Of a stretch of 54,347 bases of DNA, positions 11,521 to 52,316 are shown piece by piece (within the stretch, counting starts at the first letter, position 1; each line of letters opens with the position of its first letter). Under the pieces are notes generated by a model that worked only from the letters and a program-made list of their open reading frames with translations, ran no database searches and was not told the origin of the DNA. A program made the translations under genes and the position numbers. The DNA lies in NCBI GenBank assembly GCA_944385425.1, contig CALWXD010000146.1:1-54347 (forward strand), written 5' to 3'. Source of the DNA: an uncultured Oscillospiraceae bacterium (lineage in GTDB: Bacteria; Bacillota; Clostridia; Oscillospirales; Oscillospiraceae).

Positions 11521-11522
11521 AC

Positions 11523-20621: not shown

Positions 20622-20741
20622 TATAGGATAAGAAATTGCATGCGCCGTGGGGCACACCAGGATAACCGGCAAAAGAACGCGGCCCATATCGCAAAACAGC
20701 GGAAACGCCGGCGCGGGCAAAAAAGACAGGAGGAGCGGAAA

Positions 20742-23480: not shown

Positions 23481-23511
23481 TTTCCGCCAGGCGGAAGGAA
23501 GGAGGAGCACC

Positions 23512-27005: not shown

Positions 27006-27007
27006 GG

Positions 27008-27792: not shown

Positions 27793-30102
27793 TTACTGCT
27801 GGCAGAGATCGGGCGACTCTTCTTGTATCGCCTTTAGAATTTTTTCGGGTGTAAAGGGCAGCTGGCGCATGTGGATTCCGGCGGCATTGAACAGAGCGTT
27901 GGCAATTGCCGGCGCCACGGTATGTACGGACGCCTCGCCGATGGACTTAGCCCCGTAAGGCCCCGAGGGCTCCTCGCTTTCGGCGAAGGAAACCTCGATA
28001 CAGTCTGCCGGGAGGTCCTCCCGGCACGGGATCTTATATTGCATGAAAGAATCCGTCTGTAGTTTGCCGTTTTCGCCATAGTGGACCTCTTCAAAGAGGG
28101 CCAGCCCAATGCCCATTAAAATTCCGCCCTCCGCCTGCACGCGGGCCAGGGTGGGGTTGATGACCCTGCCGCAGTCAGCCACGCTTACAAATTTTAACAA
28201 TTCCACTTTCCCGGTACGCAAATCCAGGTCAATTTCCGCGAAACCGGACATAAAGGTAAGGGGCGCAAGGCCGCTGACAAATGTTGCCGAGGTGATAATC
28301 TGTTCTGTTCCGCCATGTTCCGCCTTTGTTCCTATCTGTTCAATGGTCACAAATTTTTCCGGATCATTGCGGATAAAGACACGGCCGCCATCAAACTCGA
28401 CATCCTCCGCTGGGCATGCCAGCATTGTAGCGCCAAGCTGGCAGATCATCGGCCGCAATTTTTTTGCCGCAGAGAGGACGGCGTTCCCGGCAACGTAGGT
28501 TGTGGACGAGGCAAAGGCGCCGGAATCATACGTCCCGTAATCCGTATCCCCGCTGCGGATACAAATCCGCTCCGGGACAGTAGACAGGGCCTCTGCCGCG
28601 ATTTGGGTCAACACAGTATCTGAGCCAGTGCCAAGATCCGCGGCGCCAGTAAGCAGGAGATAACTGCCATCCGGTTCCAGCCGCAGCGTTACTGTGGCCT
28701 TATCCGCAACCGGGATGCTGGTGCGATGGGTTGTAAGGGCAACGCCAACCGCGCGGACATGGTCTTGCGAAACGCGGACCCTGGGGTACTTTTGATCCCA
28801 GCCAATCTGCTGCCGCCCCATTTCCATACAGCGGGCCAAGGCGCAGCTTTTGATCTCGCTGTGCAGGATACCGCCCACATCTCCCAGGCGCGCCATATTT
28901 TTTATCCGGATCGTATAAGGGTCCATCTTCAATCTTTCGGCAAGCTCGCTTATGGCGGCTTCTAGGGCAAAGCCGCCCTGGGTCGCCCCATAGCCGCGCA
29001 AGGCGGCGCCCGAGACCCTGTTTGTATAGATGGTGCGCCCACGGTACCAAATGGCGTTGGCCCGGTTATAGCTTGGCAGGATGTTATTGGCAACCACCAT
29101 GGTTACAGGGGGGCCTTCTTCGCCATAGGCGCCTGTGTTGCTGACATTGTCAATTTTAATCGCTTTGAGGACGCCATCCCGGCTGGCGCCTAGGGTTACG
29201 CGCATCTTCATGGCGTGCCGCGTAGTCGTGGTAGAAAAGTTCTCCTTCCTGTCCAGCACCAAAATGGCGGGGCGCCCGGTTTTTAGCGTTACCAGGCCGG
29301 CAAGCGGATCTGTAATCGTTACCTTTTTCCCGCCGAAGCCGCCGCCCACCCGCATTTTAATCACCCGGACTTTGCTGATGGGCAGGCCCAGGCTCCGGGC
29401 AACTTGGCGCCGCATGTGGTAAGGTGCCTGCGTGGTTGCAACGACTGTAAGCCGTCCATCGGGCGCGAGATATGTATAGCTGCGCAGCGTCTCCATCATG
29501 GCATGCGCCTGGGCCTGTGTCTCGTAGACGGCAGTGTGTACGACATCAGAGGCAGCCAGTTCCGCATCTACATCCCCGATATCCACCTGGAAGCAGGAAA
29601 TTTGGTTATGCGCCGGATCATAGCCCGGGGCTAGAACCGGGACATAGAGGTCCTCTACCGCGTGGATCAGCGTTTCCCCGGTCATGCTCTTTTCGGGGTC
29701 AAGGACGGCGGGAAGCATTTCATACTCCACGCGAATCATTTTAAGTGCCTTTTGGGCCGCTTCCGGCGTCTCGGCGGCAACCAGCGCGACCTCATCCCCC
29801 ACATACCGCACAACTTGATCCAGGATCTTTCGATCAAAGGGGGCGTTTTCTGGATAAGAACAGCCGTTGCCGCTATAGCGGATATCTGGGGCGTCTTTGT
29901 AAGTAAGGACAGCTACTACGCCAGGGACCCGTTCCGCCTTTTCCGTATGGATAGCGCGGATCTTGGCATGCGCATGGGGACTTCGCAAAACTTTGATAAA
30001 AAGGGTTCCCGGCAGCTTTGGGAAATCGTCTACATACACAGGAGCGCCCAAAGAAAGTGCCCTCGCGTCGATCTTGGGGAGCTTTAAGCCAATATTACGC
30101 AT
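27793..30102 (-). CDS. xanthine dehydrogenase/aldehyde oxidoreductase family molybdopterin-binding large subunit
   Basis: 769 aa containing Ald_Xan_dh_C and the Mo-cofactor binding domains (GGGFGGK motif). Confidence 0.85.
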   Translation of the reverse strand: MRNIGLKLPKIDARALSLGAPVYVDDFPKLPGTLFIKVLRSPHAHAKIRAIHTEKAERVPGVVAVLTYKDAPDIRYSGNGCSYPENAPFDRKILDQVVRYVGDEVALVAAETPEAAQKALKMIRVEYEMLPAVLDPEKSMTGETLIHAVEDLYVPVLAPGYDPAHNQISCFQVDIGDVDAELAASDVVHTAVYETQAQAHAMMETLRSYTYLAPDGRLTVVATTQAPYHMRRQVARSLGLPISKVRVIKMRVGGGFGGKKVTITDPLAGLVTLKTGRPAILVLDRKENFSTTTTRHAMKMRVTLGASRDGVLKAIKIDNVSNTGAYGEEGPPVTMVVANNILPSYNRANAIWYRGRTIYTNRVSGAALRGYGATQGGFALEAAISELAERLKMDPYTIRIKNMARLGDVGGILHSEIKSCALARCMEMGRQQIGWDQKYPRVRVSQDHVRAVGVALTTHRTSIPVADKATVTLRLEPDGSYLLLTGAADLGTGSDTVLTQIAAEALSTVPERICIRSGDTDYGTYDSGAFASSTTYVAGNAVLSAAKKLRPMICQLGATMLACPAEDVEFDGGRVFIRNDPEKFVTIEQIGTKAEHGGTEQIITSATFVSGLAPLTFMSGFAEIDLDLRTGKVELLKFVSVADCGRVINPTLARVQAEGGILMGIGLALFEEVHYGENGKLQTDSFMQYKIPCREDLPADCIEVSFAESEEPSGPYGAKSIGEASVHTVAPAIANALFNAAGIHMRQLPFTPEKILKAIQEESPDLCQQ

Positions 30103-30104
30103 CG

Positions 30105-30893
30105 TTACACCTCATTCGTCTCTATCAGAGTCCGCTGGCACAGTACGGCACACAACTGCCGCCGGTACTGCGCGCTGGCCCGCATGTTGCTCCCAAAGCA
30201 CAACTCCTCCGCAGCGGTCCGGGCAGCGAGGGAAACCGCCGCTGGATCCCTTGCAAGCTGTTCCATCGCCCCATAGGCAAGAGCCGCGCACATCGGGCGA
30301 GCCCCTACCGCTATGCGGTACCCAGTTTCTGTGCGGACGGATGCCACATTGAGCAGGGAGAAGTCCCCCTTGGAATTTCGGAAATTGGAAAATGCGCCGG
30401 CCGCGTTGCCGGCGGGCAAGATGATTTCGACCAACAGGTCCCGTGTGCGGGGCTGCTTTAGAAACGCTTCCAGGGTAAGCTCCCCTTGCGCAAACAGCCG
30501 GACGCGGGCATTGCAGGCCAGCAGCGGCGTAATGACATCGGAAAACCCATATTTTGAAAAAACGCTGGCACCAACTGTGGCCAGGTTGCGGAACTGCGTA
30601 CCAATAATTTCACCGACAGAACGGCTGATGATGCCGCCGCAATAGCGTCTTAGGAGGGGCGAGGTCTCCAGAGTGCGCAGGGAGCACATTGCGCCAAGGC
30701 GCAGTGTACCGTCGGACTCCTCACGGATGTAGTCTAGACCGCAGCCAGACAGGTCAATGGCAAGGGGGATATCGGCGGAGGTCATCCGAAGGAAGAGGTT
30801 GCCGGCGATGAGGCGGCTGCGCTTATTCTTTTGCAGCAGATTGGCGCATTCCTCAATACTTTTGGGGATAACGTATTCTTTCACCCGGTACAT
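30105..30893 (-). CDS. FAD-binding subunit of xanthine dehydrogenase family enzyme (CoxM/XdhB-like)
   Basis: 262 aa. FAD_binding_5 signature (RLIAGN...). The start is coupled to the upstream subunit. Confidence 0.8.
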   Translation of the reverse strand: MYRVKEYVIPKSIEECANLLQKNKRSRLIAGNLFLRMTSADIPLAIDLSGCGLDYIREESDGTLRLGAMCSLRTLETSPLLRRYCGGIISRSVGEIIGTQFRNLATVGASVFSKYGFSDVITPLLACNARVRLFAQGELTLEAFLKQPRTRDLLVEIILPAGNAAGAFSNFRNSKGDFSLLNVASVRTETGYRIAVGARPMCAALAYGAMEQLARDPAAVSLAARTAAEELCFGSNMRASAQYRRQLCAVLCQRTLIETNEV

Positions 30894-30907
30894 AGAGGGT
30901 CCTCCTT

Positions 30908-31366
30908 TTAGGTCTTAGGCTCATGGCGGAAGAGGGATCGGATTGCCCTAAGCTGCGAGTGATAACCGGTGCAGCGGCAGAGGTTCCCATTCAGATAGTG
31001 GACAATCTCCTCATCGGTGGGGGAGACCAGCTCCCGCTTCATCGCGAGAATGCCCATAATCAGACCCGGCGCGCAATATCCGCACTGGTCCGCCCCCTCC
31101 GCGGCAAGCGCGTCCGCTACAGCGGCAGCCTCCTCCCCCATCCCTTCCACCGTGGTAACACGGCGCCCGTCCGCCCGGGCCGTTGGAACCGAGCAGGAGA
31201 GCACCGGCTTTTCATCGAGCCAAACGGTACAGATGCCGCAGTTCGCACTTTCGCAGCCGGAGCGGACGCTGTGGATCCCCGCGTTTCGCAGGGTCTCCAG
31301 CAAAGGCGTCTCCGGAGCCGCCTCACAGCAGGTCGGCTTCCCATTGATGATGATCGTAAATTGCAT
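30908..31366 (-). CDS. (2Fe-2S)-binding subunit of xanthine dehydrogenase family enzyme (CoxS/XdhC-like)
   Basis: 152 aa. The ferredoxin-type cluster is CESANCGICTV and the second cluster is CGYCAPG...CRCTGY. Confidence 0.85.
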   Translation of the reverse strand: MQFTIIINGKPTCCEAAPETPLLETLRNAGIHSVRSGCESANCGICTVWLDEKPVLSCSVPTARADGRRVTTVEGMGEEAAAVADALAAEGADQCGYCAPGLIMGILAMKRELVSPTDEEIVHYLNGNLCRCTGYHSQLRAIRSLFRHEPKT

Positions 31367-31573
31367 AAGATATCTGTCCTTTCAAAATCATAGAAGAGAT
31401 GGCTTGACAAAGCGGAGAAAACCTTTTACCATATCAAATGCGCCCCTTGTTTCTCCCAAAAGGCTCCGACCAGAACGATCATAGGAGATGGTAACATTAC
31501 TGACCGAGAGATTGTAGAATCATATATCCCTATTGCAAAATTTATTGCGGCGGTATCCGGTCCCCGTTGTGAA

Positions 31574-32179
31574 GTGGTTGTCCATTATCTTGCAGATACT
31601 GACCAGTCCATTATCGCCATCGAGAACGGATATGTGACCGGACGGAAGGTAGGGGATACGCTGATTGATCTGGATCTGCACAGCGTCTTCGCGCCAGAAC
31701 ACATGAGCCTGCCGTTCATCGCAAACTATGTGGGCAAGAGCACCGTAGGGGACAAGATATTCCGTCTATCCACCTTTTACATCAAGAACCCCAAGGGGGA
31801 TGTCGTTGGTCTGCTGAATACAAACGTAGATATCTCTGATTTTATCGCGATGCAGAGCACGATTTCTAAAGAGTTATTTGTAAACGAAAATGCAAAGCTA
31901 CCAGACGGAATGCTGCAGCCCCAGGCCCTGGTGGTCTCAACCAAGTCCATGATTGAATCCACCCTCGCAGAGGCCATGAGCCGGTATGGTTTTCCAGACG
32001 CCGCCGCCTTGGAGCGGGAGGACAAATTGAGGCTGATTTCATATCTGTGTGATCACAATATCTTTGTGCTAAAAGGGGCGGTTGGGATCGTTGCGGATAA
32101 ACTGGGCATTTCTGAGCCGACCACATACCGCTACCTGCAAAAACTGAAAGCGGAAAGGGCCAAAAGCGGAAAGGAATAA
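31574..32179 (+). CDS. YheO-like PAS-domain / HTH transcriptional regulator (N-terminus probably extended upstream, see findings)
   Basis: The sequence ...SIIAIENGYVTGRKVGDTLIDLDL... plus the C-terminal HTH (AVGIVADKLGISEPTTYRYLQKLK) shows the YheO family. The coordinates given are the GTG-initiated track ORF. The conserved family N-terminus (YIPIAKFIAAVSGPRCEVVVH) continues in-frame upstream to at least 31496 without any ATG. Confidence 0.6.
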   Translation: MVVHYLADTDQSIIAIENGYVTGRKVGDTLIDLDLHSVFAPEHMSLPFIANYVGKSTVGDKIFRLSTFYIKNPKGDVVGLLNTNVDISDFIAMQSTISKELFVNENAKLPDGMLQPQALVVSTKSMIESTLAEAMSRYGFPDAAALEREDKLRLISYLCDHNIFVLKGAVGIVADKLGISEPTTYRYLQKLKAERAKSGKE

Positions 32180-32182
32180 AAT

Positions 32183-32220
32183 GCGGAGTCTGCATGCCGG
32201 TGTGTAGGCTCCGCTTTTTT
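32183..32220 (+). terminator. rho-independent terminator
   Basis: GCGGAGTCTGCATGCC-ggtgtgt-AGGCTCCGC followed by TTTTTT. Confidence 0.7.
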
Positions 32221-32293
32221 ACACAGGCCGGCCGGCTTTGCAAAGAATGGGCGCTATTTTCAAAATAGCACCCATTCTTTGCGCGTTTCATGC

Positions 32294-33625
32294 TCAGCTC
32301 TCAGAGGAGATGGTAAAGATTTCGTCGGTTTCTTTCTTCCGGTCTAACAGCTTGGAGAGGATGATATACAGCAGGAACCCAGCGATCATGCCAGCGATAC
32401 TGGACGGGATGGGCACCGCCGCCTGGTTGGCTACCACAATGCGGCACACGATGAAGCCGAGAACCCAGGCGAGGAAGGCCGAGACGCGGAAACCAGAGGG
32501 CATGCGATAGGACGTGGCGCGGGAGGAGTTCAAGACCCAGAAATGGGCGATCAGAATGCCGGCAAAGGGGGTCGTGAAGGCGCCGAGATAGCCCAGCCAC
32601 TGGCTGAAGTTACTGGCGAAGCCAAAGGTGGAGGCGATAACGGCGATGCAGACGCAGATGATGGTCCAGCCCCATTTGGGGATCTTGATCCCCACCAGGG
32701 CGCTGGCGTTGGTATAGGCCAGGGAGGAGGAATAGACGTTGTTATCGGTGGTGGTCCACAGGGCCAGCAAAAGCACCAGCAAACCGGGGATCAACAGGCC
32801 CAAGGCATTGAAAATGCCGGTAAAGTCCGTTGCGTCCGTGGCAATCGACATGATAACAGCGCTGCCCTCAAATACGGAGGTCCCTACAATAAAGCCGAAA
32901 ATCACACTTCCTACAATATGGCTCGGCTTCTTAGCGTAACGGGAAATATCGGCAGACAGGCAGGCCCCGTTGGCCCAAGTGGAAATCACGCTGGAGATAC
33001 CGGCGGCCATGGTCAGCTCGCCGGCGGGCTGGATGTCAAAAACCGCTCCCAGGCCGCCTTCAACGATGCCGTTGCAGGAGATAAGGCTGATTAAGAGCAG
33101 GAGCAGCAGGGATGGGACGGCGACATAGCTGATGATCGTCAATCCCTTATATCCGAAAATGGCGCTGGAGGTGATGCATACAGCAAAAATCACGATTGCC
33201 AAAAAACTGGGAAAGCCTGGGAGCAGGGCAGCGATGGAGGTGCCGAAGCTATCCATCAAGACGCCAATAAGGCACATTCCCAATGTTCCCAGGACAACCG
33301 ATGAGATGATAGAACCCTTCTTCCCAAAGACAATGCGGCCCAAGTGAGCGGTGGTTAAACCTGTGCGCTGGCCGATGATTCCAAGAAGAACGGCGATTAC
33401 GACCAGGACGCTGTTGCCGATGAGGACAGCAGCAATCCCATTGGCTGCAGTTAAGCCAGCCCCCAGCGTGCCGCCGGTTAAAAACGCGCTGATGCTGACC
33501 GCAAAACCAAACCAGACGGCGGCATTACTGGTAAAGCTCTTTCTTTGATTAACAGGGACAGCTGATGTGGAATAGTCGCTGACCAGGCCTTGGGAAATAC
33601 TGTTGCTATTACTGTTGTTCGCCAT
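32294..33625 (-). CDS. NCS1 family nucleobase:cation symporter (cytosine/purine/hydantoin-type permease)
   Basis: 443 aa 12-TM permease with CodB/NCS1-like sequence features. Confidence 0.75.
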   Translation of the reverse strand: MANNSNSNSISQGLVSDYSTSAVPVNQRKSFTSNAAVWFGFAVSISAFLTGGTLGAGLTAANGIAAVLIGNSVLVVIAVLLGIIGQRTGLTTAHLGRIVFGKKGSIISSVVLGTLGMCLIGVLMDSFGTSIAALLPGFPSFLAIVIFAVCITSSAIFGYKGLTIISYVAVPSLLLLLLISLISCNGIVEGGLGAVFDIQPAGELTMAAGISSVISTWANGACLSADISRYAKKPSHIVGSVIFGFIVGTSVFEGSAVIMSIATDATDFTGIFNALGLLIPGLLVLLLALWTTTDNNVYSSSLAYTNASALVGIKIPKWGWTIICVCIAVIASTFGFASNFSQWLGYLGAFTTPFAGILIAHFWVLNSSRATSYRMPSGFRVSAFLAWVLGFIVCRIVVANQAAVPIPSSIAGMIAGFLLYIILSKLLDRKKETDEIFTISSES

Positions 33626-33833
33626 GGTTTCTCTCCTTTCTCACTTTGGATATTGCTGTTTGCGGCATGTACAGGTTCCGCGCCGATTCAATAAAAAATA
33701 GTTACATACCGCAGGGAAACAGTATCATACGAATAAATAAATGTCAATACACTTTCGTCAGTAAAATTAAAAATCATGAGAATAACTCTTCTTTTATGGT
33801 CAATATAGCCAAATATGGGGGAGAAAAATCGGC

Positions 33834-33875
33834 TTGACAAACGATATGTCGGCGTTTATGATAATTATGTATAAT
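33834..33875 (+). promoter_or_regulatory. sigma-70 promoter in an AT-rich divergent intergenic region
   Basis: TTGACA (33834-39), a 17 nt spacer, then TATGAT (33857-62). An alternative TATAAT lies at 33870-75. A ~100 nt leader follows before the SD AAAAAGGAGG. Confidence 0.55.
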
Positions 33876-33967
33876 AATTTTTTATTATTATATGAGAGGA
33901 ACCTGCCCATTGTCCCGTTGCAGAACCCACACACCCCGCATGACCGTAATAAAAAAGGAGGAACCAG

Positions 33968-34996
33968 ATGAAAAGTGAGCAAACTGTAAAATTTGGCCTT
34001 GGGATTTCCACTGGAGCCGAGGGGCTCATGTATCCGATTCCGTACGCGAATGTCCGCGATATTGTAGATATCTCTGTATTCGCAGAAAAGATGGGGTTCG
34101 ATTCCGTCTGGGGCAACGATCATATCACCACGCAAAAGTATGTGTTTGATGAATTCAAGGCGCAGCCGCGCTATTATGCGCCCCTTCTCGTGCTGGCCGC
34201 CATCGCGGAGCACACGACCACGCTGAAAGTTGCCACAGGCCTCCTGGTTGTTCCCTTCCGGAACCCCGCCGTAGTAGCCAAAGAGCTGGTAACATTGGAC
34301 CACCTCTCCAACGGCCGGCTGTTGGTGGGAGCCGGCTTGGGCGCCTACCGCGAGGAGTTTGAGGCGGAGTTCGGCGAGAAGGCAAAAGAGATGGTCCGCG
34401 GAAAACTCTTTGATGAGAGCATCGCGATTATCCACCGCATTTTTACAGAGGAGAGCGTCAGTGCCAGCGGCGAATATTTTGATGTCCAAAATATCCGCTC
34501 TTTCCCCAAACCGCTGCAGTCCCCCTTCCCCTTCTACTTTGGCGGCAACTCCGACAAGGGGCTCAGCCGCACCGTCCAATACGGCCGTGGCTGGCTCCCC
34601 TTCGATCTGACGGTGGAGGAAATCGCCGCCGGGGTTTCCAAATTGCGCGAAAAGTGCGCCGCAGCCGGCCGGGCCTATGACATTGACGTTGCGCCGCAGT
34701 TTTGTATCTCCATCGGCCGGACCCACGAGGAAGCCTGCAAAAAATTTGAGCGCTCCCAGATCTACAAGCACACCATCTCGCTGGAACAGTCCACCTTAAA
34801 AGGGAAAAAAGCCTCCGATTATACGGAGCGGAACCTTGTCGGCTCCCCCGAGGAAATTATCGAGCGAATAGAGGCTTACCGCGAAGCAGGGGTCACCACA
34901 TTTTCCGCCCTGCTGTTCGCCAATAACACCTTGGAAGAAACCCGGGAGGATATGCAGTTCTTCTCCGAAACCGTCATTTCTCGTTACAGAGCGTAA
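33968..34996 (+). CDS. LLM-class (luciferase-like) flavin/deazaflavin-dependent oxidoreductase
   Basis: 342 aa TIM-barrel LLM signature (FDSVWGNDH..., ...LSNGRLLVGAGLG...). Confidence 0.8.
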   Translation: MKSEQTVKFGLGISTGAEGLMYPIPYANVRDIVDISVFAEKMGFDSVWGNDHITTQKYVFDEFKAQPRYYAPLLVLAAIAEHTTTLKVATGLLVVPFRNPAVVAKELVTLDHLSNGRLLVGAGLGAYREEFEAEFGEKAKEMVRGKLFDESIAIIHRIFTEESVSASGEYFDVQNIRSFPKPLQSPFPFYFGGNSDKGLSRTVQYGRGWLPFDLTVEEIAAGVSKLREKCAAAGRAYDIDVAPQFCISIGRTHEEACKKFERSQIYKHTISLEQSTLKGKKASDYTERNLVGSPEEIIERIEAYREAGVTTFSALLFANNTLEETREDMQFFSETVISRYRA

Positions 34997-35009
34997 GGGG
35001 GCGTTTGCT

Positions 35010-36188
35010 ATGCAGGATTTTCGTATCGGGCGTCTGTGCGAAGCGGCGAGGCGGCAGGGTGTCGATTGCCTGGTGGCGTCTTCTGTAGAAAATATCTCTT
35101 ACTTAACCGGCGGATACACCAGCGTGGGGCAGACCGTTTCTGCCTCTACGCAGAATTATGCCGTCTTATCCGTGGAACAAAAGGCCGTCTCTTATGTGGC
35201 CTCGGTGGCAGACGTACCTAATATTTTGGAATTCGCCGGTTTAGGCGTCAGCATCTATTGCTACGGCCCGTTCCACTTTGCGTTTACAGCAGATGGAGAC
35301 ACTTTCGTCCAGGCCGCCGAGCGGATTTGCGCCAATCGTTACGCGACGGCCGAGGAGGCGCTTGTCGCGGCGGTACAGGCCGCCGGCAATTCTCCCGCCT
35401 TTGATGAGACCCATATCCACTTCTCCCTCGCCGGCACGATTGCTGAAAAGCTTGGCGTCGCCGGGCTTACCGCGGCTTCCGCCATCTTCCGGGAGGCGCG
35501 CCGGGTCAAGCACCCCGAAGAGATCCAGCGTTTACATGAGAGCGCGCAGATCGCGGAGGCGGCTTTACTGGAGTCGTTAGAAAACGCCCGTCCCGGGATT
35601 TCGGAGGAGGAACTGCAGCTGCGCTACCAGCAGGCCGTCATCCGCCGCGGCGCTATCCCTTACTTTTTTGTCGCCACCGCAGCCCGCCGCGCCGCTTATG
35701 TCGATGCCCACAACACCGGCCTTGTCATTCAAAAAGGAGACATGATCCGCTTTGATTTTGGTTGTATCTGGCGGGGGTTCTATTCCGACTTGGCGCGCAC
35801 AGCCGTCATGGGGCAAGCCAGTCCCGAAATTGCAAAAGCTTACGGCGCCGTGGCCGCGGGTGCAAAGGCGATGCTTGATGCGCTGCGTCCCGGCATCGCC
35901 GCAGAAAAGCTGTTCGAAACGGCGGTACGGGCCGTCCGGAACAACGGCCTTCCCGATTACGCCAGGAGCCACTGCGGCCACGGCATTGGGTTGGAGGGAT
36001 ATGACGTACCCTCCCTCGCCGCCGGCGTAACGATGGAGATCGAGGAAAACATGGTGCTTTGCGTGGAGACCCCATACTACCGCATCGGGTGGGGCGGCGT
36101 ACAAATTGAGCACACGGTCGCTGTCACAAAGGATGGCTTTGCCTTCATGGACAGCGGAGATTCCTCTCTCATCGTCATCCCCTGTTAA
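35010..36188 (+). CDS. M24 family metallopeptidase (Xaa-Pro aminopeptidase / creatinase-like)
   Basis: A creatinase-N-like N-terminal domain is followed by the pita-bread fold with metal ligands (D...D...H...E...E: FDFGC..., HCGHGIGLEGY, CVETPYY). Confidence 0.75.
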   Translation: MQDFRIGRLCEAARRQGVDCLVASSVENISYLTGGYTSVGQTVSASTQNYAVLSVEQKAVSYVASVADVPNILEFAGLGVSIYCYGPFHFAFTADGDTFVQAAERICANRYATAEEALVAAVQAAGNSPAFDETHIHFSLAGTIAEKLGVAGLTAASAIFREARRVKHPEEIQRLHESAQIAEAALLESLENARPGISEEELQLRYQQAVIRRGAIPYFFVATAARRAAYVDAHNTGLVIQKGDMIRFDFGCIWRGFYSDLARTAVMGQASPEIAKAYGAVAAGAKAMLDALRPGIAAEKLFETAVRAVRNNGLPDYARSHCGHGIGLEGYDVPSLAAGVTMEIEENMVLCVETPYYRIGWGGVQIEHTVAVTKDGFAFMDSGDSSLIVIPC

Positions 36189-36217
36189 GCTTGGCCACTA
36201 AGGAAGGAGCTGTCGTT

Positions 36218-36862
36218 ATGAAAATTGCAATTATTGGCGGAACCGGCAATATGGGATACGGGCTGGGCCTGCGCCTGGCCAAAGCAAATCACGAGATCGT
36301 GATTGGATCCCGCACCGCCGAACGGGCGGAAGAGGCGGCAAAGGCCGCCCGTGCACTGGTCGGCACTAGTCAGATTACCGGGGCGGAAAATGCGTCGGCG
36401 GCCCAGGAGGCGGAGCTTGTCATCCTTTCCGTTCCAACCGCCGGCCACCGGGAGATGGTACAAAGTCTTCGTGATATCCTCTCCCATAAATGCGTACTGG
36501 ATATTACCGTACCGCTGGCGTTCAAGCCGCTTCGTTATGCGCCCCCCCTAGAGGGCTCTAACGCCCAGGAGACGGCAGCCATCCTCGGAGAGGGGTGCCG
36601 TGTTGCCGCCGGCTTCCATACCATTTCCGCCACGCTGCTCACAGATCTTGAGGCACCCCTTGAAGCAGACGCCCTGTTGGTTGGAAATGACGCAGCGTTA
36701 AAAGAGCAGCTCCTCACTTTGGGGCGGGAGATTGGGATTACCGTTTACGACGCCGGCACATTGACGCTGGCCTGTGCCTTGGAGAGCCAGACGCCCATGC
36801 TCATCGGGATGAATAAGCGTTACGGAAGCAAGCACATTGGATTTAAAATGGTTGGCTTTTGA
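36218..36862 (+). CDS. NADPH-dependent F420 reductase-like (F420_oxidored family Rossmann protein)
   Basis: MKIAIIGGTGNMGYGLGLRLAKANHEIVIGSR... matches the Npd-type Rossmann N-terminus. The ATG at 36218 follows AAGGAAGGAG. Confidence 0.65.
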   Translation: MKIAIIGGTGNMGYGLGLRLAKANHEIVIGSRTAERAEEAAKAARALVGTSQITGAENASAAQEAELVILSVPTAGHREMVQSLRDILSHKCVLDITVPLAFKPLRYAPPLEGSNAQETAAILGEGCRVAAGFHTISATLLTDLEAPLEADALLVGNDAALKEQLLTLGREIGITVYDAGTLTLACALESQTPMLIGMNKRYGSKHIGFKMVGF

Positions 36863-37036
36863 CGGACCGCTCTCTCCCTAAGTCCCGCATCGCGCGTCTG
36901 ACAGGGCGGAGCCTCTTTCTCTGTGGCAATCCCAGGATACAGGCAAAAATTGCACGGCAGCAGACGTGAAACGCAACATGAAGCCGGATGTGTTTCTATG
37001 TATACTCGAAAAGTCGAGAGCAAGAAAGGAGCATCT

Positions 37037-38041
37037 ATGAAAAATCCATACGGATTGAGTTTCGGTATCTTTGGCGGGCACTCGCTGGAAGACACCATCC
37101 AGATGGTACAACGTGCCGAGTCCGCTGGACTGTCAGCTTGCTGGATTTTTGAAGACTACTTTTATGGCGGCGCGTTTTCAACGGCTACCGCCTGCGCCAT
37201 GAGCACAAAAACGATTCAGATCGCAATCGGCGTCATCAACCCTTTTACCCGCCACCCAGCCCTTTCCGCCATGGAGGCGGCTTCTCTCGACGCGCTCTCG
37301 CATGGCAGATTGATCCTTGGAATGGGGGGCAGCAACAAGGGTTGGATTCAAGACAAGGCGGGGATTCCGTTCGAAAGGCCAATCCAAGCCGCTATCGAGG
37401 CTGCCGATATTATCCGGCAGCTTGTCAATACCCGGCACGTCCACTACAACGGTGAAATCTTTAAAACCGGCGAGATCGCCCTTGAATTTGAGACATACCG
37501 CTCGAATATGCCGGTATATCTTGGCGTAAAAGGCGCCAAAGCGCTTTTCCGGGCGGGTCAGACCGCCGATGGCGTCGTATTATCCTCCTGCACCTCCCTT
37601 CCCTATATCAAATTCGCGCGGGAACATATTGCGGCGGGAGCGCAGTCGGCGGGACGGAATCCAGACGAGTTGAAAATTGCCGCCTATTTCCCGACAGCTG
37701 TCAACGACAACGAAAAGGAGGCGCGGGACTTGGTTCGCCCGTATCTCGCGAAATTTATCGGGATCCATGGCTATCACCCGATTCTGTTCGAGGCCGGGCT
37801 GAGCGAGGAGATCATCCGCCCCTTTAAGGAAGCCCTGGCGAAAGGCGCCAGCGCCAGCGTAATCCCCCTTGTCACAGACGATATTGTTGACCGCCTTGCC
37901 ATTGCGGGCAACGCCGCCTATTGCCGGGACAAACTGGCCGCAATTAACGCCGCGGGGGTTTCGATGCCGATCGCCTTTGAGCTCCCTGGACAAATGCCCT
38001 TAGAACTGGTGGATACGCTGGAGAACAAAATTCTTAATTGA
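37037..38041 (+). CDS. LLM-class oxidoreductase of the methylene-H4MPT-reductase/F420-dependent subfamily
   Basis: MKNPYGLSFGIFGG...AESAGLSACWIFEDYFYGG... matches this subfamily. The ATG at 37037 follows AGAAAGGAG. Confidence 0.7.
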   Translation: MKNPYGLSFGIFGGHSLEDTIQMVQRAESAGLSACWIFEDYFYGGAFSTATACAMSTKTIQIAIGVINPFTRHPALSAMEAASLDALSHGRLILGMGGSNKGWIQDKAGIPFERPIQAAIEAADIIRQLVNTRHVHYNGEIFKTGEIALEFETYRSNMPVYLGVKGAKALFRAGQTADGVVLSSCTSLPYIKFAREHIAAGAQSAGRNPDELKIAAYFPTAVNDNEKEARDLVRPYLAKFIGIHGYHPILFEAGLSEEIIRPFKEALAKGASASVIPLVTDDIVDRLAIAGNAAYCRDKLAAINAAGVSMPIAFELPGQMPLELVDTLENKILN

Positions 38042-38059
38042 TGATTTTCTGGAGGGCCT

Positions 38060-39133
38060 ATGAATTATATCAACAGTATCACAGAGGCAATTGGAAATAC
38101 GCCGCTGCTTAAGCTGAATAAAATCGGGAAAGACGCCGGGGCAAATATCTTTGTCAAGCTGGAACACCTAAACCCCAGCGGCAGCTATAAAGACCGTATG
38201 GCCCTTGCCATGGTGGACGCCGCCCTGGAGGGGCGCACATGGAATGGCCGGACCTTGCCGGCTGACGGGGTTGTCGTAGAGGCCTCCGCCGGAAATACCG
38301 CCCCGGCTCTGGCCTTGGTATGCGCCGCAAAAGGTCTCAAGGCTCGGCTGGTCTTGTACCGCTACCAGTTTGAGGGAGAGACCAATTCCCGTATGCAGAT
38401 TACCCAGGCTTTTGGCCCGGAGGTAACCGTCTCCAGTGAGCCCGGCGACTATTTGACGCCGGAGGAAGTGGAGGAGTTTTCCAAGGAGGAACCCGATATC
38501 CCCCATGTAATCGCCGCCAAGATGGACTGCCAAAAAATGGAAGATGAGGATGCAAAAACCGTCTGGGTGGATCAGATCTACAATATGGAAAACCTTGAAG
38601 GGCAGAAGGCCATGGCAAAAGAGATCTACAACCAGCTTGACGGCAAAATCGACGCCATAGGCTGCTCCGTTGCCGCTGGCGGTACGCTGTATGGCCTGTG
38701 TGCCGGTCTGGCCGAACTTGGCGTCCATCCGGAATTGACCTTTGGCGTGGTCCCCAGCGGAAGCGAATGCTATTTGAGCCTGCCCAAAAAGGAGTGCAAT
38801 TACGGGGAGTACAAAGTTTCTGAGGCGCGCCATAAGGTCGCGGCGGCCATGGGGCTTAAAAAGTGGGTCACAGAGGAGTCCATTATCCACAAGATGGTAG
38901 AGGCGGGGTACCCAGACAAATGCTTTTTGGTTACGGACGAGGAGGCCCGGGAGATGGCAAACCGTCTGTGCCAGGAGGAAGGGATTTTCTGCGGGATGTC
39001 CTCCGGCGCGAATGTGTTGATTGCCCTTGAGATCGCAAAACGGCTTGGCCCGGGAAAAAACGTAGTAACAACCATTGTTGACCGTCGGGACCGCTATCTC
39101 AGCGAAAGCCCCCATGAGAAATATGTAGTATAA
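38060..39133 (+). CDS. PLP-dependent cysteine synthase/CBS family (PALP fold) protein
   Basis: A PLP-lysine motif (NPSGSYKDRMAL) and a glycine-rich loop (GCSVAAGGTLYG). Confidence 0.7.
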   Translation: MNYINSITEAIGNTPLLKLNKIGKDAGANIFVKLEHLNPSGSYKDRMALAMVDAALEGRTWNGRTLPADGVVVEASAGNTAPALALVCAAKGLKARLVLYRYQFEGETNSRMQITQAFGPEVTVSSEPGDYLTPEEVEEFSKEEPDIPHVIAAKMDCQKMEDEDAKTVWVDQIYNMENLEGQKAMAKEIYNQLDGKIDAIGCSVAAGGTLYGLCAGLAELGVHPELTFGVVPSGSECYLSLPKKECNYGEYKVSEARHKVAAAMGLKKWVTEESIIHKMVEAGYPDKCFLVTDEEAREMANRLCQEEGIFCGMSSGANVLIALEIAKRLGPGKNVVTTIVDRRDRYLSESPHEKYVV

Positions 39134-39155
39134 CGGGCAAGAAATGAGGAGGAAT

Positions 39156-39734
39156 ATGAACAGCGAAGCAAAGATGAACAAAAACCGTCTGTTTCAGATG
39201 GTGTTGATTGCTGAAATGGGAGCTATTTCGGTTATTCTCGCTAAGTTTACCCGATTCCCCATTTTTCCTTCCGCGCCATTTTTGAAAATGGATTTGGGGG
39301 AACTCCCACTGCTTTTGTGCGTAATACTCCTCCCGGGCTGGCGCGGTCTGGTCGCGCTGCTGGTTAAGGAGTTCCTGTCTTTTCTCCTTTTTGGAACCAA
39401 TCTTTTCGGTCTAACAGCCGACTTCCTGGCCTGCGGCGCCTTTCTCGCTGGATTTCTTTTGCTTTACCAGAAAAAGCCCGCGCCATCGCTGCGGCGCTTT
39501 TCCCTCTCGGTGGGGCTGGCATCCATTTTCCGGATGTTGTTTTCTATCCCTCTAAATCTGGTCATTTTACAGTTGCAATACGGCTCCACAATTGAGACGA
39601 TATGGCTGCAAATGCCGTATATTGTCCCATTCAACGGACTTAAGTGCCTGCTTGACGGGGTGTGTATCGCCCTCATGTGGAAACAGCTGCAAAATATATG
39701 GCATGGCCGTATAAGAGGGGTGCTCCAGCCGTAA
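39156..39734 (+). CDS. ECF-transporter S (substrate-capture) component-like membrane protein
   Basis: ~190 aa membrane protein with 5-6 TM helices. The ATG at 39156 follows GAGGAGGAAT. Confidence 0.55.
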   Translation: MNSEAKMNKNRLFQMVLIAEMGAISVILAKFTRFPIFPSAPFLKMDLGELPLLLCVILLPGWRGLVALLVKEFLSFLLFGTNLFGLTADFLACGAFLAGFLLLYQKKPAPSLRRFSLSVGLASIFRMLFSIPLNLVILQLQYGSTIETIWLQMPYIVPFNGLKCLLDGVCIALMWKQLQNIWHGRIRGVLQP

Positions 39735-40061
39735 CATTCGCTCCACAGCAGCCCTTAGGCGGGGTCTGACGCGCATTTGTCCGCTTCCTCCTTCCAAATC
39801 CAGCATTAGTGCGCTTTTTAACAATTCAATAAACCGAACAAAGCAATATCAGCGATATAGGACGCCTATAGAGCTGATATTGCTTCATCCAAACGGTTTT
39901 CTCTTTTACGGCAGGGCCAGAGAGGGCCACTGCGCGTTAAACGGCTGGCCCCACGATCTATTTGCACACGATAATTTTGTTTGCTGTACTCCTTTCCATG
40001 GCCGTCAGCCGAATAGGCAAATATTTTAAACGCCCGCTTCAGCAGCATGGAGGTACCACTT

Positions 40062-41378
40062 ATGGAGCTATACCCTATTGATCATATCCCCGAAATTGAT
40101 ACCAACAGCAATCTTCCCGCCCTAATCTACCAAGGGGTAACAAAAATGGGAAAAGCGCTGGCAGCGGGAGATATTCTCGTCATCACCTCGAAAGTTGTTG
40201 CAAAATGGAAGGGGTGTGTCCGCCGCCTGGAGGATATCCAGCCCGGGCCGGCCGCCCAGCGCATCAGCCAAATTTTGGGCCGCCCCCCCGCGTACTGCCA
40301 AATGGTACTCGATGTCAGCAGTGAAATTGTGCGTCTTGCACCGGGGGTCATGATTACACGGACCCATCATGGCTTTGTCATGGCCAATGGCGGAATTGAT
40401 GGTTCCAACACGGCACATTCCGGCGAATACATCTATTTGCCGGAAAATTTAGACGAGTTGGCGCAAGAAATTCGGGATTCGCTGATGGCGGCCGGCGCTC
40501 CAGAGATTGCGATCGTACTCAGCGATACTTTTGGCCGCCCCTGGCGCAATGGGCAGGTGGATTTAGCTGTCGGCTGCGCCGGGTTAGAGCCGCTGCTGGA
40601 TCTTCGAAACACACAGGATGATATCGGGCAGACGTTATTTAGCACACTGCCGGCTATTGCGGACGAGTTATCCGCAGCAGCAGACCTTGTCGCCGGAAAA
40701 ACAAACCGGGTGCCAGCGGTTTTAATTCGTGGCTACCATTATCCCAAAGGAGACAGCGGCACAGAGCCATTGATTATGCCCCGGGAACGGGATCTCTTTG
40801 GGCCGGCCTCCATAGGGCCGCAGGCCTTGGCCATGCTCTTGCAGCGTCATTCTGTGCGGGTCTTCCAAAAACGCCCCGTCCCAAAGCAGTTATTGGGACA
40901 AATCCTTGCCGCCGGGCAGGTGGCCCCTTCCTCCCACAACCGTAAACCTTGGCACTTCCATGTCATTGACCAGGAAAGCGCGCTAAAGCCTTTTTGGGCC
41001 GCGTTGACCCAGCGGCGCACCTATGACATGCGCCAGGCGGGATTTCGAGAAGCTCTTGTCCATGAGTGGTTGGACCGCAACAAGCGCACCCTCGAAACCG
41101 CGGCGGCCCTCATTATCCTATCGGGCAAAAAGCATCCCGAAGAAAATCCCCTGGACGAAAACGAGGAGATTGATCGGATACTGACCATTCAGAGCGTCGC
41201 CCTAGCAGGCGGGCAGATGCTGCTGGCAGCCTCTTTTCTTGGTTTAGGGGCTTGCTGGTATGCCGCCCCGCTTTTCTGTGCGGATTTAGTAGAGAATCTG
41301 ATCGCGTTGCCGGAGGAATATGTCCCGCACGGAATGCTAGCCCTTGGGTACGCAGCCGAGGACGGTTCCGCGCCCTAA
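40062..41378 (+). CDS. bifunctional coenzyme F420-0:L-glutamate ligase (CofE-like) / nitroreductase-fold protein (FbiB-like architecture)
   Basis: The N-terminal half matches CofE (GDILVITSKVVAKWKGCVRRLEDI, MANGGIDGSN, LSDTFGRPWRNGQVDLAVG, VPAVLIRGY). The C-terminal half is nitroreductase-like (HSVRVFQKRPVPKQLLGQILAAGQVAPSSHNRKPWHFHVI). The ATG at 40062 lies 8 nt after GGAGG. Confidence 0.7.
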   Translation: MELYPIDHIPEIDTNSNLPALIYQGVTKMGKALAAGDILVITSKVVAKWKGCVRRLEDIQPGPAAQRISQILGRPPAYCQMVLDVSSEIVRLAPGVMITRTHHGFVMANGGIDGSNTAHSGEYIYLPENLDELAQEIRDSLMAAGAPEIAIVLSDTFGRPWRNGQVDLAVGCAGLEPLLDLRNTQDDIGQTLFSTLPAIADELSAAADLVAGKTNRVPAVLIRGYHYPKGDSGTEPLIMPRERDLFGPASIGPQALAMLLQRHSVRVFQKRPVPKQLLGQILAAGQVAPSSHNRKPWHFHVIDQESALKPFWAALTQRRTYDMRQAGFREALVHEWLDRNKRTLETAAALIILSGKKHPEENPLDENEEIDRILTIQSVALAGGQMLLAASFLGLGACWYAAPLFCADLVENLIALPEEYVPHGMLALGYAAEDGSAP

Positions 41379-41517: not shown

Positions 41518-41555
41518 ATAAAGGGCGCGCCGCAATACATTGCGGCGCGCCTTTT
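41518..41555. terminator. bidirectional rho-independent terminator
   Basis: AAAGGGCGCGCCGCAA-tacat-TGCGGCGCGCC followed by TTTTG. Confidence 0.65.
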
Positions 41556-41641: not shown

Positions 41642-42631
41642 TCAAAACCACGGGGCCTGCTCCGTCCGGAACCGGGGCGCCGGCCCATCGGCGTAGGGAT
41701 CGTAGCGCTCCAGATTGCAGCCAAACTCCTTTAGGCGCTCCATCCGCCCGGAGGCGTCCCAGGTCACCAGGGACATCCCCTCAAAGCGGGTCTCGCCGCC
41801 GTCGTACATCCGGCTGTGGAACAGCCACTCCACCGCAGTCTGGTTCCCCCGGTGGAAAAACTGCCGGATGTCCCACCGCAGCACCTCCCCCCGGGTGCGC
41901 CACTCCCCCAGCCAGTGGCGGATGGCCGCCGCGCCGTGGTACTCCGGGCCCCAGCTCTCGGTGTACACCGCATCCGGCGTAAAGAGGGCGGAGAGGTCGT
42001 CCTCCTCCCCGGTCATCCACAGGGAGAACCAACGCCGGATCAACTCCTCCCGCGCCGCCGGGGCGGGGAACAGGCTGCCCTCCCCCGCCCCGCCGCTCCA
42101 GAGCACCGCATCCACCGGGATGTCATGGGCCTCGGTCTCCAGGTGGTCCACCAGCTGGAAATCGTAGCACAGGGCGATGGTGGGGTGGCCGGGGTGCTGG
42201 GCGAGAAACCGGTCGTAGAACCCGCCGCCGTAGCCCATGCGGTTTCCGGCCCGGTCAAAGGCCAGCCCCGGCATGATGACAAGGGCGGCGGGGTCGTCAG
42301 CCTCCGGCCCGTCGGCGATGGGCTCGGGGATATCGTAGTAGCCCGGGGCCACGGCCTGGAGGTCGTCCAGCCACAAAAAGGCCATCCGGCTGCCGCCGGA
42401 GAGCACCTTGGGCACCGCCACCCGTTTCCCGTCCCGTATGGCCTGCTCCAGGATGGGCATGGTGCGGACCTCCTGGTTGTAGGAGAGGTAGCAGTAGAGG
42501 CTCTTCGCCTTCTGATAAAGGGGATGGGCGAAGAGCTGTCGGGCCAGGTCCGCGCTGCAGCGGTCGATCTCCTCCGGCGTCATGGCTTTTTTCTTCCGGT
42601 CCATCTCATGGCGCAAGGCTTTTTTATCCAT
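41642..42631 (-). CDS. 5-formyltetrahydrofolate cyclo-ligase (MTHFS) fused to a C-terminal SnoaL/NTF2-like domain
   Basis: MTHFS core motifs are GLAFDRAGNRMGYGGGFYDRFL and HDIPVD. An extra ~140 aa C-terminal NTF2-like domain follows. The ATG at 42631 follows AGGAGGAGG and overlaps the uvrC 3' end by 8 nt. Confidence 0.7.
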   Translation of the reverse strand: MDKKALRHEMDRKKKAMTPEEIDRCSADLARQLFAHPLYQKAKSLYCYLSYNQEVRTMPILEQAIRDGKRVAVPKVLSGGSRMAFLWLDDLQAVAPGYYDIPEPIADGPEADDPAALVIMPGLAFDRAGNRMGYGGGFYDRFLAQHPGHPTIALCYDFQLVDHLETEAHDIPVDAVLWSGGAGEGSLFPAPAAREELIRRWFSLWMTGEEDDLSALFTPDAVYTESWGPEYHGAAAIRHWLGEWRTRGEVLRWDIRQFFHRGNQTAVEWLFHSRMYDGGETRFEGMSLVTWDASGRMERLKEFGCNLERYDPYADGPAPRFRTEQAPWF

Positions 42632-51544: not shown

Positions 51545-51580
51545 AACGATTACCTGATTTCTTTCAGAATATGCAAACCG

Positions 51581-52165: not shown

Positions 52166-52316
52166 GCGTACTTCCTCCTTCAAAATAAGCGGCGGAAAAG
52201 TGAGCAATGAAGCTACTACACGAAGGAATGGGCAAAAGAAAATACCAATCCGCCGGATGGAGGGCTATACGCCCCCCGCGAATTGGTAATCTGAGTCTAT
52301 CACCCGTAGCTTGTGC

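Follow-up and report, generated by a model that had tools for sequence, protein, structure and literature searches.

How does a bacterium run F420-dependent enzymes when the genes that would make the cofactor are missing from its locus? The question is raised by contig CALWXD010000146.1, a 54,347-bp stretch from the metagenome-assembled genome (MAG) of an uncultured, high-GC Oscillospiraceae bacterium. The whole contig was analyzed (here called the window), and statements about the genome are limited to it. Between 27793 and ~41520 lies a 13.7-kb island of lower GC content, in which the GC at third codon positions (GC3) is 0.6 to 0.75 (27793-41378), compared to ~0.9 in both flanks. We consider it likely that the island is horizontally mobile, encodes F420-dependent catabolism, and obtains its cofactor by salvage instead of synthesis, and the host bacterium probably scavenges F420 from its neighbors.

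A first-pass annotation, made from the letters alone, had described seven co-directional F420-type genes here. All seven are present on the + strand and could be assigned with curated hidden Markov models (HMMs) or Pfam. The start it gave for the cluster, position 33834, was misplaced, lying in the intergenic region upstream of the first gene, LLM1. In the following list, LLM stands for luciferase-like monooxygenase, ECF for energy-coupling factor, and PLP for pyridoxal phosphate.

33968..34996, + strand: LLM1, F420-dependent LLM oxidoreductase (TIGR03619, 183.9 bits versus a cutoff of 166.9)
35010..36188, + strand: M24B metallohydrolase, prolidase/aminopeptidase-P-like (PF00557 plus Creatinase_N)
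36218..36862, + strand: NpdG/Fno, NADPH-dependent F420 reductase (TIGR01915, 207.7 bits versus a cutoff of 149.8)
36863..37036, no strand: 174-nt spacer, where sister islands hold a standalone cofE (E1 paralogue)
37037..38041, + strand: LLM2, Mer-like F420-type LLM oxidoreductase, not Mer itself (TIGR03555, 193.9 bits, below the cutoff of 348.7)
38060..39133, + strand: CysK/CBS-fold PLP enzyme (PF00291; below all equivalog cutoffs)
39156..39734, + strand: ECF S-component of a RibU-derived, cof-linked family (PF12822, 46.8 bits versus 30.7)
39735..40061, no strand: intergenic region that separates the S-component from the fusion gene, ~313 nt, with a 12-bp perfect inverted repeat (~39841-39886)
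40062..41378, + strand: CofE::nitroreductase fusion gene (TIGR01916 plus PF00881)
40062..40811, + strand: CofE domain (E2 paralogue), F420-0/F420-n:L-glutamate ligase (TIGR01916, 218 bits versus a cutoff of 180.65, residues 6-251)
40812..41378, + strand: FbiB-C-terminal-like nitroreductase domain, dehydro-F420-0 reductase homologue (PF00881)

F420-type enzymes on a contig without Fo synthase, cofC, or cofD

Genes were assigned by scoring against curated HMMs with their own cutoffs, plus Pfam. For NpdG, LLM2, the S-component, and the fusion, the true starts are slightly downstream of those of the longest open reading frames (ORFs), as in a 99%-identical contig (L001). The families assigned at first pass largely stood: the CofE domain belongs to TIGR01916, the C terminus of the fusion to PF00881, and LLM1 to TIGR03619. 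The CofE domain matches solved CofE structures (2PHN/7ULD, E = 3e-32) and holds 48 of the 57 positions that are >=85% conserved, the same as its relatives in complete clusters. It groups with Clostridial cofE2 genes. The LLMs appear to be F420 enzymes and not flavin mononucleotide (FMN) enzymes, LLM1 lying above cutoff in an F420 family and LLM2 having only F420 LLMs among its top families, with FMN families at <=49 bits. As first proposed, LLM2 appears similar to methylenetetrahydromethanopterin reductase (nearest solved structures Mer, E = 1e-41; score below the Mer cutoff), and the PLP enzyme appears to have a cysteine synthase-like fold. NpdG is found in nearly all related clusters.

Of Fo synthase (CofG plus CofH, or FbiC), CofC, CofD, and CofE, CofE alone is present in the 54-kb contig. 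The first-pass annotation had reported the same absence, and two tblastn checks together with Pfam scans agree. The CofC and CofD of relatives detected neither cofC nor cofD nor remnants of them in the whole window, including the two intergenic gaps, and no Fo synthase was detected there by tblastn with actinobacterial FbiC or by Pfam scans of the other genes. Comparison loci gave a similar picture. Among the ORFs of >=250 amino acids (aa) in 28 cof-linked loci (351 kb), only one, a GGDEF protein, contained the radical-SAM motif CxxxCxxC, and FbiC searches by tblastn over 1.1 Mb of fetched DNA matched solely three actinobacterial control loci. In actinobacterial loci, fbiC is found near fbiB. 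The cof-linked clusters hold the steps after Fo and a flavin-type importer and never Fo synthesis, and they therefore carry a genomic signature of salvage.

A rare RibU-derived S-component is linked to cof genes

The S-component is ~190 aa long and has the AxxxA docking motif in the first transmembrane helix (TM1; A19 and A23), which is conserved across groups. Six S-components taken from these clusters can be aligned over their full length, 24 positions being invariant, and the family profile matches the structures of the riboflavin transporter RibU (5KC0/5KBW, E = 3e-30; 3P5N, E = 8e-23) and nothing else significantly. The riboflavin S-component model PF07155 gave no match for the window protein; some other family members match it weakly. 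An HMM search of 1.84 billion representative proteins returned 37 representatives at E<=1e-30, compared to 1,495 at E<=1e-10. Judged by these scores, the family appears to be a small, rare offshoot of the RibU superfamily.

Linkage was assessed in 80 metagenome loci retrieved by means of the family alignment and split into groups by the score of the S-component against the family HMM. cof genes lay near the S-component in 16 of the 16 loci with a score of >=155 and usable flanks, compared to 0 of the 47 RibU-like loci (score of <=133). Each family member with visible context, including the individually inspected loci, sits among cof genes. The S-components of intermediate score (145 to 152 bits; L046, L048, L051-L053, L092, and L094) have no cof genes nearby, and some of them are near other nitroreductase-family ORFs.

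Residue signatures follow this grouping. K71 and D89 are common to both cof-linked subgroups, that is, those with and without cofC and cofD, and RibU-like proteins have V and N at these positions. The S-components of islands lacking cofC and cofD have, in addition, their own conserved basic residues (K30 and R126) and the L1 motif FLKMDxGE in place of FLKYExSG. We regard the S-component as a candidate importer of a deazaflavin (F420 or Fo). A FolT-type S-component is encoded on the same contig (see below), and the host can therefore be expected to run shared ECF modules. Import of the catabolic substrate by the S-component was considered and rejected: substrate transporters vary from cluster to cluster (NCS1, Opp, Liv, and TRAP), and the S-component stays with the cof genes.

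Reduced islands retain one CofE and the S-component

The fetched comparison loci (L-numbers) fall into three arrangements; NTR denotes the nitroreductase. First, complete clusters consist of cofC and cofE1-S-cofE2-NTR-cofD (L002-L007, L009, L010, L022-24, L042, L043, and L054). Second, an S-NTR-cofD-cofC arrangement (L040, L041, L044, L045, L047, and L056) forms an overlapping operon in high-GC contigs and is preceded by a CobC-like histidine phosphatase (L045:5360-8765). Third, loci that we call reduced have the S-component and cofE without cofC or cofD (the window, L019-21, L025-30, L033-36, L095, L098, and L099). The complete clusters of Oscillospiraceae MAGs and an uncultured Pseudoflavonifractor, in the order cofC and then cofE1-S-cofE2-NTR-cofD-YheO, adjoin orthologues of M24, Npd, and LLM1 (67-70% identical; beside cofC in L007, L009, and L010), and the two Oscillospiraceae MAGs also have LLM2 orthologues. 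Their CofC and CofD exceed the equivalog cutoffs. The closest relatives of the window's fusion gene lie in clusters ordered cofC-S-cofE::NTR-cofD, beside Npd, an LLM, M24, and a variable transporter.

The same 12-gene island was found with different flanks in at least three other lineages (L019, L028, and L029; also L033-36), in the order XDH(L, M, S)-YheO-NCS1-LLM1-M24-Npd-cofE1-LLM2-PLP-S, where XDH stands for xanthine dehydrogenase. The S-components of these sister islands are 53-81% identical to that of the window, and neither cofC nor cofD was found in the sister islands. The DNA of the window and L019 is 75-78% identical, and the ratio of nonsynonymous to synonymous substitution rates (dN/dS) is 0.02-0.09 for each shared gene (0.04 for the S-component), indicating purifying selection. 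The most conserved gene of the island is the PLP enzyme, with 94% identity to L019 and a dN/dS of 0.024.

The islands differ in their cofE. Sister islands carry a standalone cofE between npd and LLM2, which passes TIGR01916 and belongs to the E1 clade (96.5% bootstrap); L019, L028, and L029 have no nitroreductase. Synteny by blastn breaks exactly here: L019 1-7083 corresponds to window 29790-36862 and L019 7867-10523 to window 37036-39684, with the L019 cofE at 7087-7875, inside the interval where the window has its 174-nt spacer. No CofE remnant was detected in this spacer by tblastn. Sister islands end after the S-component, and the gap at 39735..40061, which has no Rfam match, is the probable junction where the fusion gene joined the island. 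In the window, cofE1 thus appears to have been lost and the cofE2::NTR fusion gained, a paralogue displacement that would keep exactly one CofE.

Across the island variants, the sole constant is one CofE plus the S-component. Other reduced layouts are cofE1-S followed by an NfsA-like gene (L025) and cofE1-S-cofE2 followed by a serine recombinase (L098). The recombinase (L098:8835-10505) is of the large CcrB/XisF-like type and lies ~1.5 kb past cofE1-S-cofE2, where the relative L022 has NTR-cofD; insertion of a mobile element may have truncated this cluster. A direct association is found in L111:771-2132 (JGI 3300042593, Ga0466691_197751), a 453-aa ORF between npd and a CysK-like PLP gene in which CofE (E1, TIGR01916, 236 bits) is fused to a window-type S-component in a continuous frame, with a ~30-residue basic linker ahead of TM1. 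Read as a Rosetta stone, this fusion would connect the ligase with the transporter. Overall, the reduced configuration looks maintained and not decayed.

The CofE::nitroreductase fusion arose independently of FbiB

The fusion had been described at first pass as the FbiB architecture of Actinobacteria. The domain order is indeed the same, but the protein is not an actinobacterial FbiB. Among nitroreductase subfamilies, its C terminus fits TIGR03553 best, but with a score of 76.9 bits compared to a cutoff of 249.55, and the full-length FbiB model NF009810 scores 269.2 bits, below its cutoff of 304. In a distance-based neighbor-joining tree of 133 CofE domains, bootstrapped on a 62-sequence subset with 200 replicates, the clade of the window protein was split from the actinobacterial-type fusions in 200 of 200 replicates, and the wider Clostridial E2 clade, with fused and unfused genes, in 197 of 200. 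The nitroreductase domain is 39-42% identical to free-standing Clostridial genes beside cofE, compared to 23-32% to FbiB C termini. An actinobacterial origin, for which a CofE phylogeny had been suggested as a test, is ruled out by these identities and by the trees (98.5-100% of bootstraps). Since each half has its nearest relatives in Clostridial genes that are adjacent but separate (L007, L010, and L022), the fusion arose in the Clostridial lineage and is convergent with FbiB. The protein is rare. Its closest relatives have 63%, 48%, and lower identity, and the 63% one lies in a complete cluster; in reference genomes, the closest relatives are in Oscillospiraceae MAGs. In two such MAGs, the nitroreductase is encoded apart from cofE2, either after a single in-frame stop (L007:9581-11092) or in another frame (L010:9911-11414); these look like intermediate states of the fusion.

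The two halves of the fusion appear to be under different constraint. When the window is compared to a 99.3%-identical contig, all 5 differences in the nitroreductase domain are nonsynonymous. The CofE domain differs by a single synonymous change, and the rest of the island by 13 nonsynonymous and 47 synonymous ones. The excess in the nitroreductase has a hypergeometric p of ~0.001 uncorrected, or ~0.01 once corrected for having picked this segment post hoc out of 13. In both alleles, moreover, the conserved RRSxR reads RHSVR and YPA reads YAA, and L003, a relative in a complete cluster, keeps both motifs. The nitroreductase half therefore appears, on these substitutions, to be under relaxed constraint and dispensable here. 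In the pathway of Bashiri et al. (2019), the dehydro-F420-0 reductase is reportedly required only if the tail is assembled from phosphoenolpyruvate by CofC and CofD. Its relaxation is therefore consistent with an island in which tail building has ceased.

Proposed salvage of a deazaflavin and its alternatives

How, then, would the island obtain and use F420? In the proposed mechanism, the RibU-derived S-component would dock on the host's shared EcfAA'T module and import a deazaflavin made by other organisms. The CofE domain would add gamma-glutamates, which would trap the cofactor in the cell and raise its affinity for bacterial enzymes, following the logic of FolT and FolC. Long-chain F420 binds 6-10-fold more tightly to bacterial enzymes than methanogen F420-2 does (PMC5623714). 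NpdG would reduce the cofactor to F420H2 with NADPH, and LLM1 and LLM2 would use F420H2 for hydride transfer in the breakdown of a small nitrogenous substrate. This substrate would enter by the NCS1 permease and would also be processed by the XdhA-like hydroxylase, the M24 hydrolase, and the PLP enzyme, with the YheO-like regulator controlling the catabolic module. The first-pass annotation had proposed salvage of Fo or F420-0. The salvage part is supported, as the RibU descent of the S-component, its cof linkage, and the lack of Fo synthase all point to an S-component that supplies CofE, NpdG, and the LLMs. Fo as the cargo fits less well, the island being without the CofC and CofD that Fo needs.

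In the window, the cargo may be F420 that already has its phospholactyl group and a short glutamyl tail, a view that we hold with a little less than even confidence. It is favored because of the layouts with only the S-component and CofE, the fusion of these two, the apparent relaxation of the nitroreductase, and the K30/R126 and altered L1 signature. Somewhat more tentatively, the reduced-type S-component could import intact tail-bearing F420 (e.g., methanogen F420-2, or F420-0) and pass it directly to CofE. The RibU-related S-subunit EetB binds flavin adenine dinucleotide (FAD) (PMC9973259), which makes a cargo bigger than riboflavin plausible for the S-component fold. Fo is the simplest cargo to assume for the complete and S-NTR-cofD-cofC clusters.

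The strongest alternative, unlikely for the window, is that the S-component imports tail-less Fo, which receives its phospholactyl group from CofC and CofD encoded elsewhere in the genome; the nitroreductase would then reduce dehydro-F420-0, and CofE would glutamylate the product. In the complete and S-NTR-cofD-cofC clusters, the S-component is accompanied by just those enzymes that lead from Fo to F420-0, so that the family very likely began with Fo import. The K71/D89 signature common to both subgroups and the 63% identity of the window's fusion to one in a complete cluster point the same way. The cof genes are also splittable, as in L045, which has no cofE nearby. Since Fo salvage needs CofC and CofD, which are absent here, either the cargo is more likely tail-bearing or cofC and cofD are elsewhere in the genome. 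Against the second option, not even remnants of them are found in the 54 kb, and at least four differently arranged reduced layouts hold the S-component and CofE but never cofC or cofD. An otherwise self-contained mobile island would require an F420-competent host that already owned an S-component and CofE. Furthermore, it is the ligase and not CofD that the CofE::S-component fusion brings to the transporter, constraint on the nitroreductase looks relaxed, and the reduced-island S-components have residues of their own.

A second alternative is that F420 is made de novo, with all the missing cof genes elsewhere, and that the S-component is a RibU paralogue supplying riboflavin or FMN to the flavoenzymes of the cluster. 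The nearest solved relatives of the S-component are riboflavin transporters, some family members match PF07155 weakly, and F420 biosynthesis genes have been predicted in Firmicutes genomes (PMC8498797). However, this is very improbable in view of the linkage to cof genes (16/16 versus 0/47 RibU-like controls) and of S-components placed between two cofE genes, fused to cofE, or present in islands without a nitroreductase. The 28 cof-linked loci have no Fo synthase, whereas actinobacterial loci do have fbiC near fbiB. Firmicutes ribU genes are typically under FMN riboswitch control, in a context of riboflavin metabolism. Neither an FMN riboswitch nor another Rfam RNA matched the island at E<=1, and no Rfam RNA was found at the gathering threshold in 7 related loci, save a tRNA beside the L028 island.

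A third alternative, that the F420 part is a decaying, nonfunctional remnant after loss of cofC, cofD, and cofE1, with the LLMs using another flavin or the whole island inactive, draws on the nonsynonymous changes in the nitroreductase, the loss of cofE1 from its ancestral position, and the ~313-nt gap with its hairpin that parts the fusion gene from the operon, but it is scarcely tenable, as every ORF is intact, nonsynonymous differences (pN) lie far below synonymous ones (pS) against L019 in all island genes including the S-component (dN/dS 0.02-0.09), the CofE domain keeps its conserved residues as in relatives and has no nonsynonymous change against the near-identical contig, the reduced layout is conserved across lineages at 53-81% S-component identity, and the island has been recovered from several samples.

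Several points weigh against the salvage reading. First, the clade of fused CofE has SKxVAKW(K/R)G where the canonical motif is SKxxSKAEG; more fully, SKxVAKW(K/R/Q)G replaces SKxxSKAEG(R/N) in the window (40176-40205) and in L003, L006, P0003, P0004, P0006, and P0008. The change drops a Glu that is 93% conserved and may signal altered catalysis or specificity. Second, LLM2 scores under every equivalog cutoff, and the relaxation of the nitroreductase rests on 5 substitutions and a post-hoc choice of domain. Third, the S-component is similar enough to RibU that its cargo may be riboflavin or FMN, and Pfam scans found no ECF energizing module (EcfA/A'/T) in the window. Fourth, any of cofC, cofD, an Fo synthase, and a second S-component may be encoded in the genome beyond this one contig; the S-NTR-cofD-cofC operons have no cofE within 6 kb, which means that cof genes can be split between loci. 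Fifth, the CofE::S-component fusion is known from a single 2.6-kb contig. Finally, F420 is not known from experiment in any Clostridia. The description of the host at first pass as a lineage not known to use F420 is accordingly correct for experiments but too strong for genomes, F420 genes having already been predicted in Firmicutes (PMC8498797).

Catabolic genes, island borders, and flanks

Beyond the seven F420-type genes, the island contains three XDH-family subunits, a regulator, and a permease. These features and the right border are as follows.

27793..30102, - strand: XdhA-like molybdopterin subunit of an XDH-family hydroxylase, the leftmost island gene (Pfam Ald_Xan_dh_C, MoCoBD_1, and MoCoBD_2)
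30105..30893, - strand: FAD-binding subunit of the XDH-family enzyme (FAD_binding_5 and CO_deh_flav_C in the identical L001 gene)
30908..31366, - strand: 2Fe-2S subunit of the XDH-family enzyme (Fer2 and Fer2_2; XdhC-type matches below cutoff)
31481..32179, + strand: YheO-like regulator (PAS_6 plus HTH_22, by Pfam), a conserved partner of these clusters
32294..33625, - strand: NCS1-family (CodB-like) permease (PF02133; PRK11017 cytosine permease, 206 bits, below the cutoff of 326)
41524..41551, no strand: GC-rich hairpin terminator at the right island edge (terminator scan; GC3 is back to ~0.9 from 41642)

The XdhA-like subunit scores 617 bits with NF043082, below the cutoff of 780, has a GC3 of 0.64 compared to 0.9 in the flank, and is syntenic in L019, L028, and L029. 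The FAD subunit is 84% identical to that of L019 at the amino acid level, with a dN/dS of ~0.09. YheO-like homologues adjoin cof genes in L007, L010, L022, L025, and L098. Read from 31481, the regulator of the window is 82% identical to a 232-aa protein of L019. Its first canonical start is at 31574, but the 31 codons upstream (31481-31573) are open and 80-90% conserved with L019; the L019 gene starts with GTG, and the homologous codon in the window encodes Ile. This suggests a noncanonical start or a recent change of the start codon. The NCS1 permease, which other cluster types swap for Opp, Liv, or TRAP transporters, presumably imports the catabolic substrate. The M24 protein had been called creatinase-like, which holds for its Pfam domains (PF00557 plus Creatinase_N). 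However, its nearest solved structures are Xaa-Pro dipeptidases (E = 1e-28), and by eye it has the D, D, H, E, E metal-ligand motifs of prolidase-type enzymes. Because these five ligand residues are apparently kept, it is probably not a creatinase proper. None of the substrates considered (pyrimidine- or purine-like bases, hydantoin- or creatinine-like rings, and heterocyclic beta-substituted alanines) is specifically supported.

Both island edges are hairpin terminators in the terminator scan. The flanking host genes are housekeeping genes (5-formyltetrahydrofolate [5-formyl-THF] cyclo-ligase, UvrC, FolD, Fhs, and FolC), and the same island at the identical insertion site, with 99.3% identity, was recovered in several ENA and Logan samples. 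With a composition distinct from that of its flanks, the island appears to be horizontally acquired or mobile. A search for direct or inverted att-site repeats at the borders found merely one 10-mer, which is not meaningful, and there is no integrase in the island. The F420 cluster of L003 has a GC content of 0.44-0.49, compared to 0.56-0.64 in its flanks (L002/L003:1-12300), and that of L019 (1-10600) 0.50-0.57, compared to 0.60-0.64; the low values in these hosts are consistent with repeated horizontal transfer. In L028, a tRNA gene (11437-11510) lies ~830 nt past the last island gene, the S-component, and is a possible integration site of the island in that lineage.

Other loci of the contig were also noted. 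Directly left of the island, 20325-27709 encodes four proteins: one of 1051 aa with a TIR domain, one of the SPFH/Band-7 type bearing several zinc ribbons, one with RCC1 repeats (GC3 0.74, below its neighbors), and one of 233 aa with no family match. This locus could be of a defense type; a PADLOC scan of it gave no match. A BlaI-like repressor (Penicillinase_R) followed by a 976-aa BlaR1/M56-type sensor-protease, at 11131-14453, is unrelated to the F420 island. At 41642-42664, 5-formyl-THF cyclo-ligase is fused to a SnoaL-like domain. Farther right, at 50255-52207, a FolT-family ECF S-component (TIGR04518, 84.7 bits versus a cutoff of 60) adjoins FolC, near Fhs, FolD, an FTCD-type cyclodeaminase, and a formate/nitrite transporter. 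This region can be viewed as a folate-salvage and one-carbon block that parallels the logic proposed here for F420.

Implications and comparison with known systems

F420 is regarded as made by its users, chiefly methanogens and actinobacteria. A 2021 review of the field treats F420 production and its roles in Firmicutes, where the genes are predicted, as an open question and makes no mention of F420 uptake, salvage, or scavenging (PMC8498797). A full-text literature search to 2026 returned nothing relevant on uptake of F420 or Fo, on ECF transporters with F420, or on F420 in Oscillospiraceae. The island is therefore best described as a candidate vitamin-type ECF salvage system for a cofactor that is not known to be salvaged. 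It and its relatives provide a cloneable candidate deazaflavin transporter and a minimal salvage kit of S-component, CofE, and Npd. If the salvage reading is true, the cofactor would be cross-fed from methanogens to fermentative Clostridia in anaerobic communities, the F420 dependence of Firmicutes would become directly testable, and the horizontal spread of F420-dependent pathways into hosts unable to make the cofactor would be explained. Biotechnological hosts, moreover, could get F420 by feeding, without the whole pathway. If import of the tail-bearing form is also true, this would be the first vitamin-style F420 transporter and salvage pathway. There would then be F420-auxotrophic Clostridia with catabolic islands reliant on methanogen or actinobacterial cross-feeding, and the complete clusters would represent the Fo-salvage version.

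The proposed system has features of several known ones. In its logic it would resemble FolT and FolC, in which a small ECF S-component mediates uptake via shared EcfAA'T and gamma-glutamylation in the cytoplasm then serves retention and affinity. It differs in that the ligase is CofE, which is GTP dependent and unrelated to the Mur-ligase fold of FolC, and in that the S-component is RibU derived, with a deazaflavin as the presumed cargo. To RibU/FmnP (5KBW, 5KC0, and 3P5N; E = 3e-30) the S-component is linked by the LK, PxN, and FNxxK motifs and the AxxxA of TM1, and the head groups concerned, ribityl-isoalloxazine for RibU and ribityl-deazaisoalloxazine here, are of nearly equal shape. Unlike RibU, however, it belongs to a separate rare subfamily with invariant K71 and D89, has no FMN riboswitch, and lies within cof operons.

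The fusion protein has the two-domain order of FbiB from Mycobacterium and other Actinobacteria, an N terminus that passes the CofE equivalog, and a C terminus nearest that of FbiB. Unlike FbiB, it scores below cutoff with both FbiB models, has a separate phylogeny, is without an FbiA/CofD or CofC partner in the window, and has a reductase half that seems relaxed. As in actinobacteria and archaea, where Fno/Npd and LLM reductases (Mer, Adf, Fgd, and LxmJ-type) act together, hydride would pass from NADPH to F420H2 and on to the LLM. In contrast to those modules, the host here belongs to the anaerobic Clostridia, the genes form a catabolic island (XDH, NCS1, M24, and PLP), and the cofactor is apparently not self-made. 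Finally, the 3PG-F420 cluster of Mycetohabitans (Paraburkholderia) rhizoxinica also has a transporter gene linked to F420 genes, which was read as inter-organism trafficking (PMC8498797). In that organism, Fo synthase is present and export was proposed, whereas the island described here has no Fo synthase and an S-component of the importer type.

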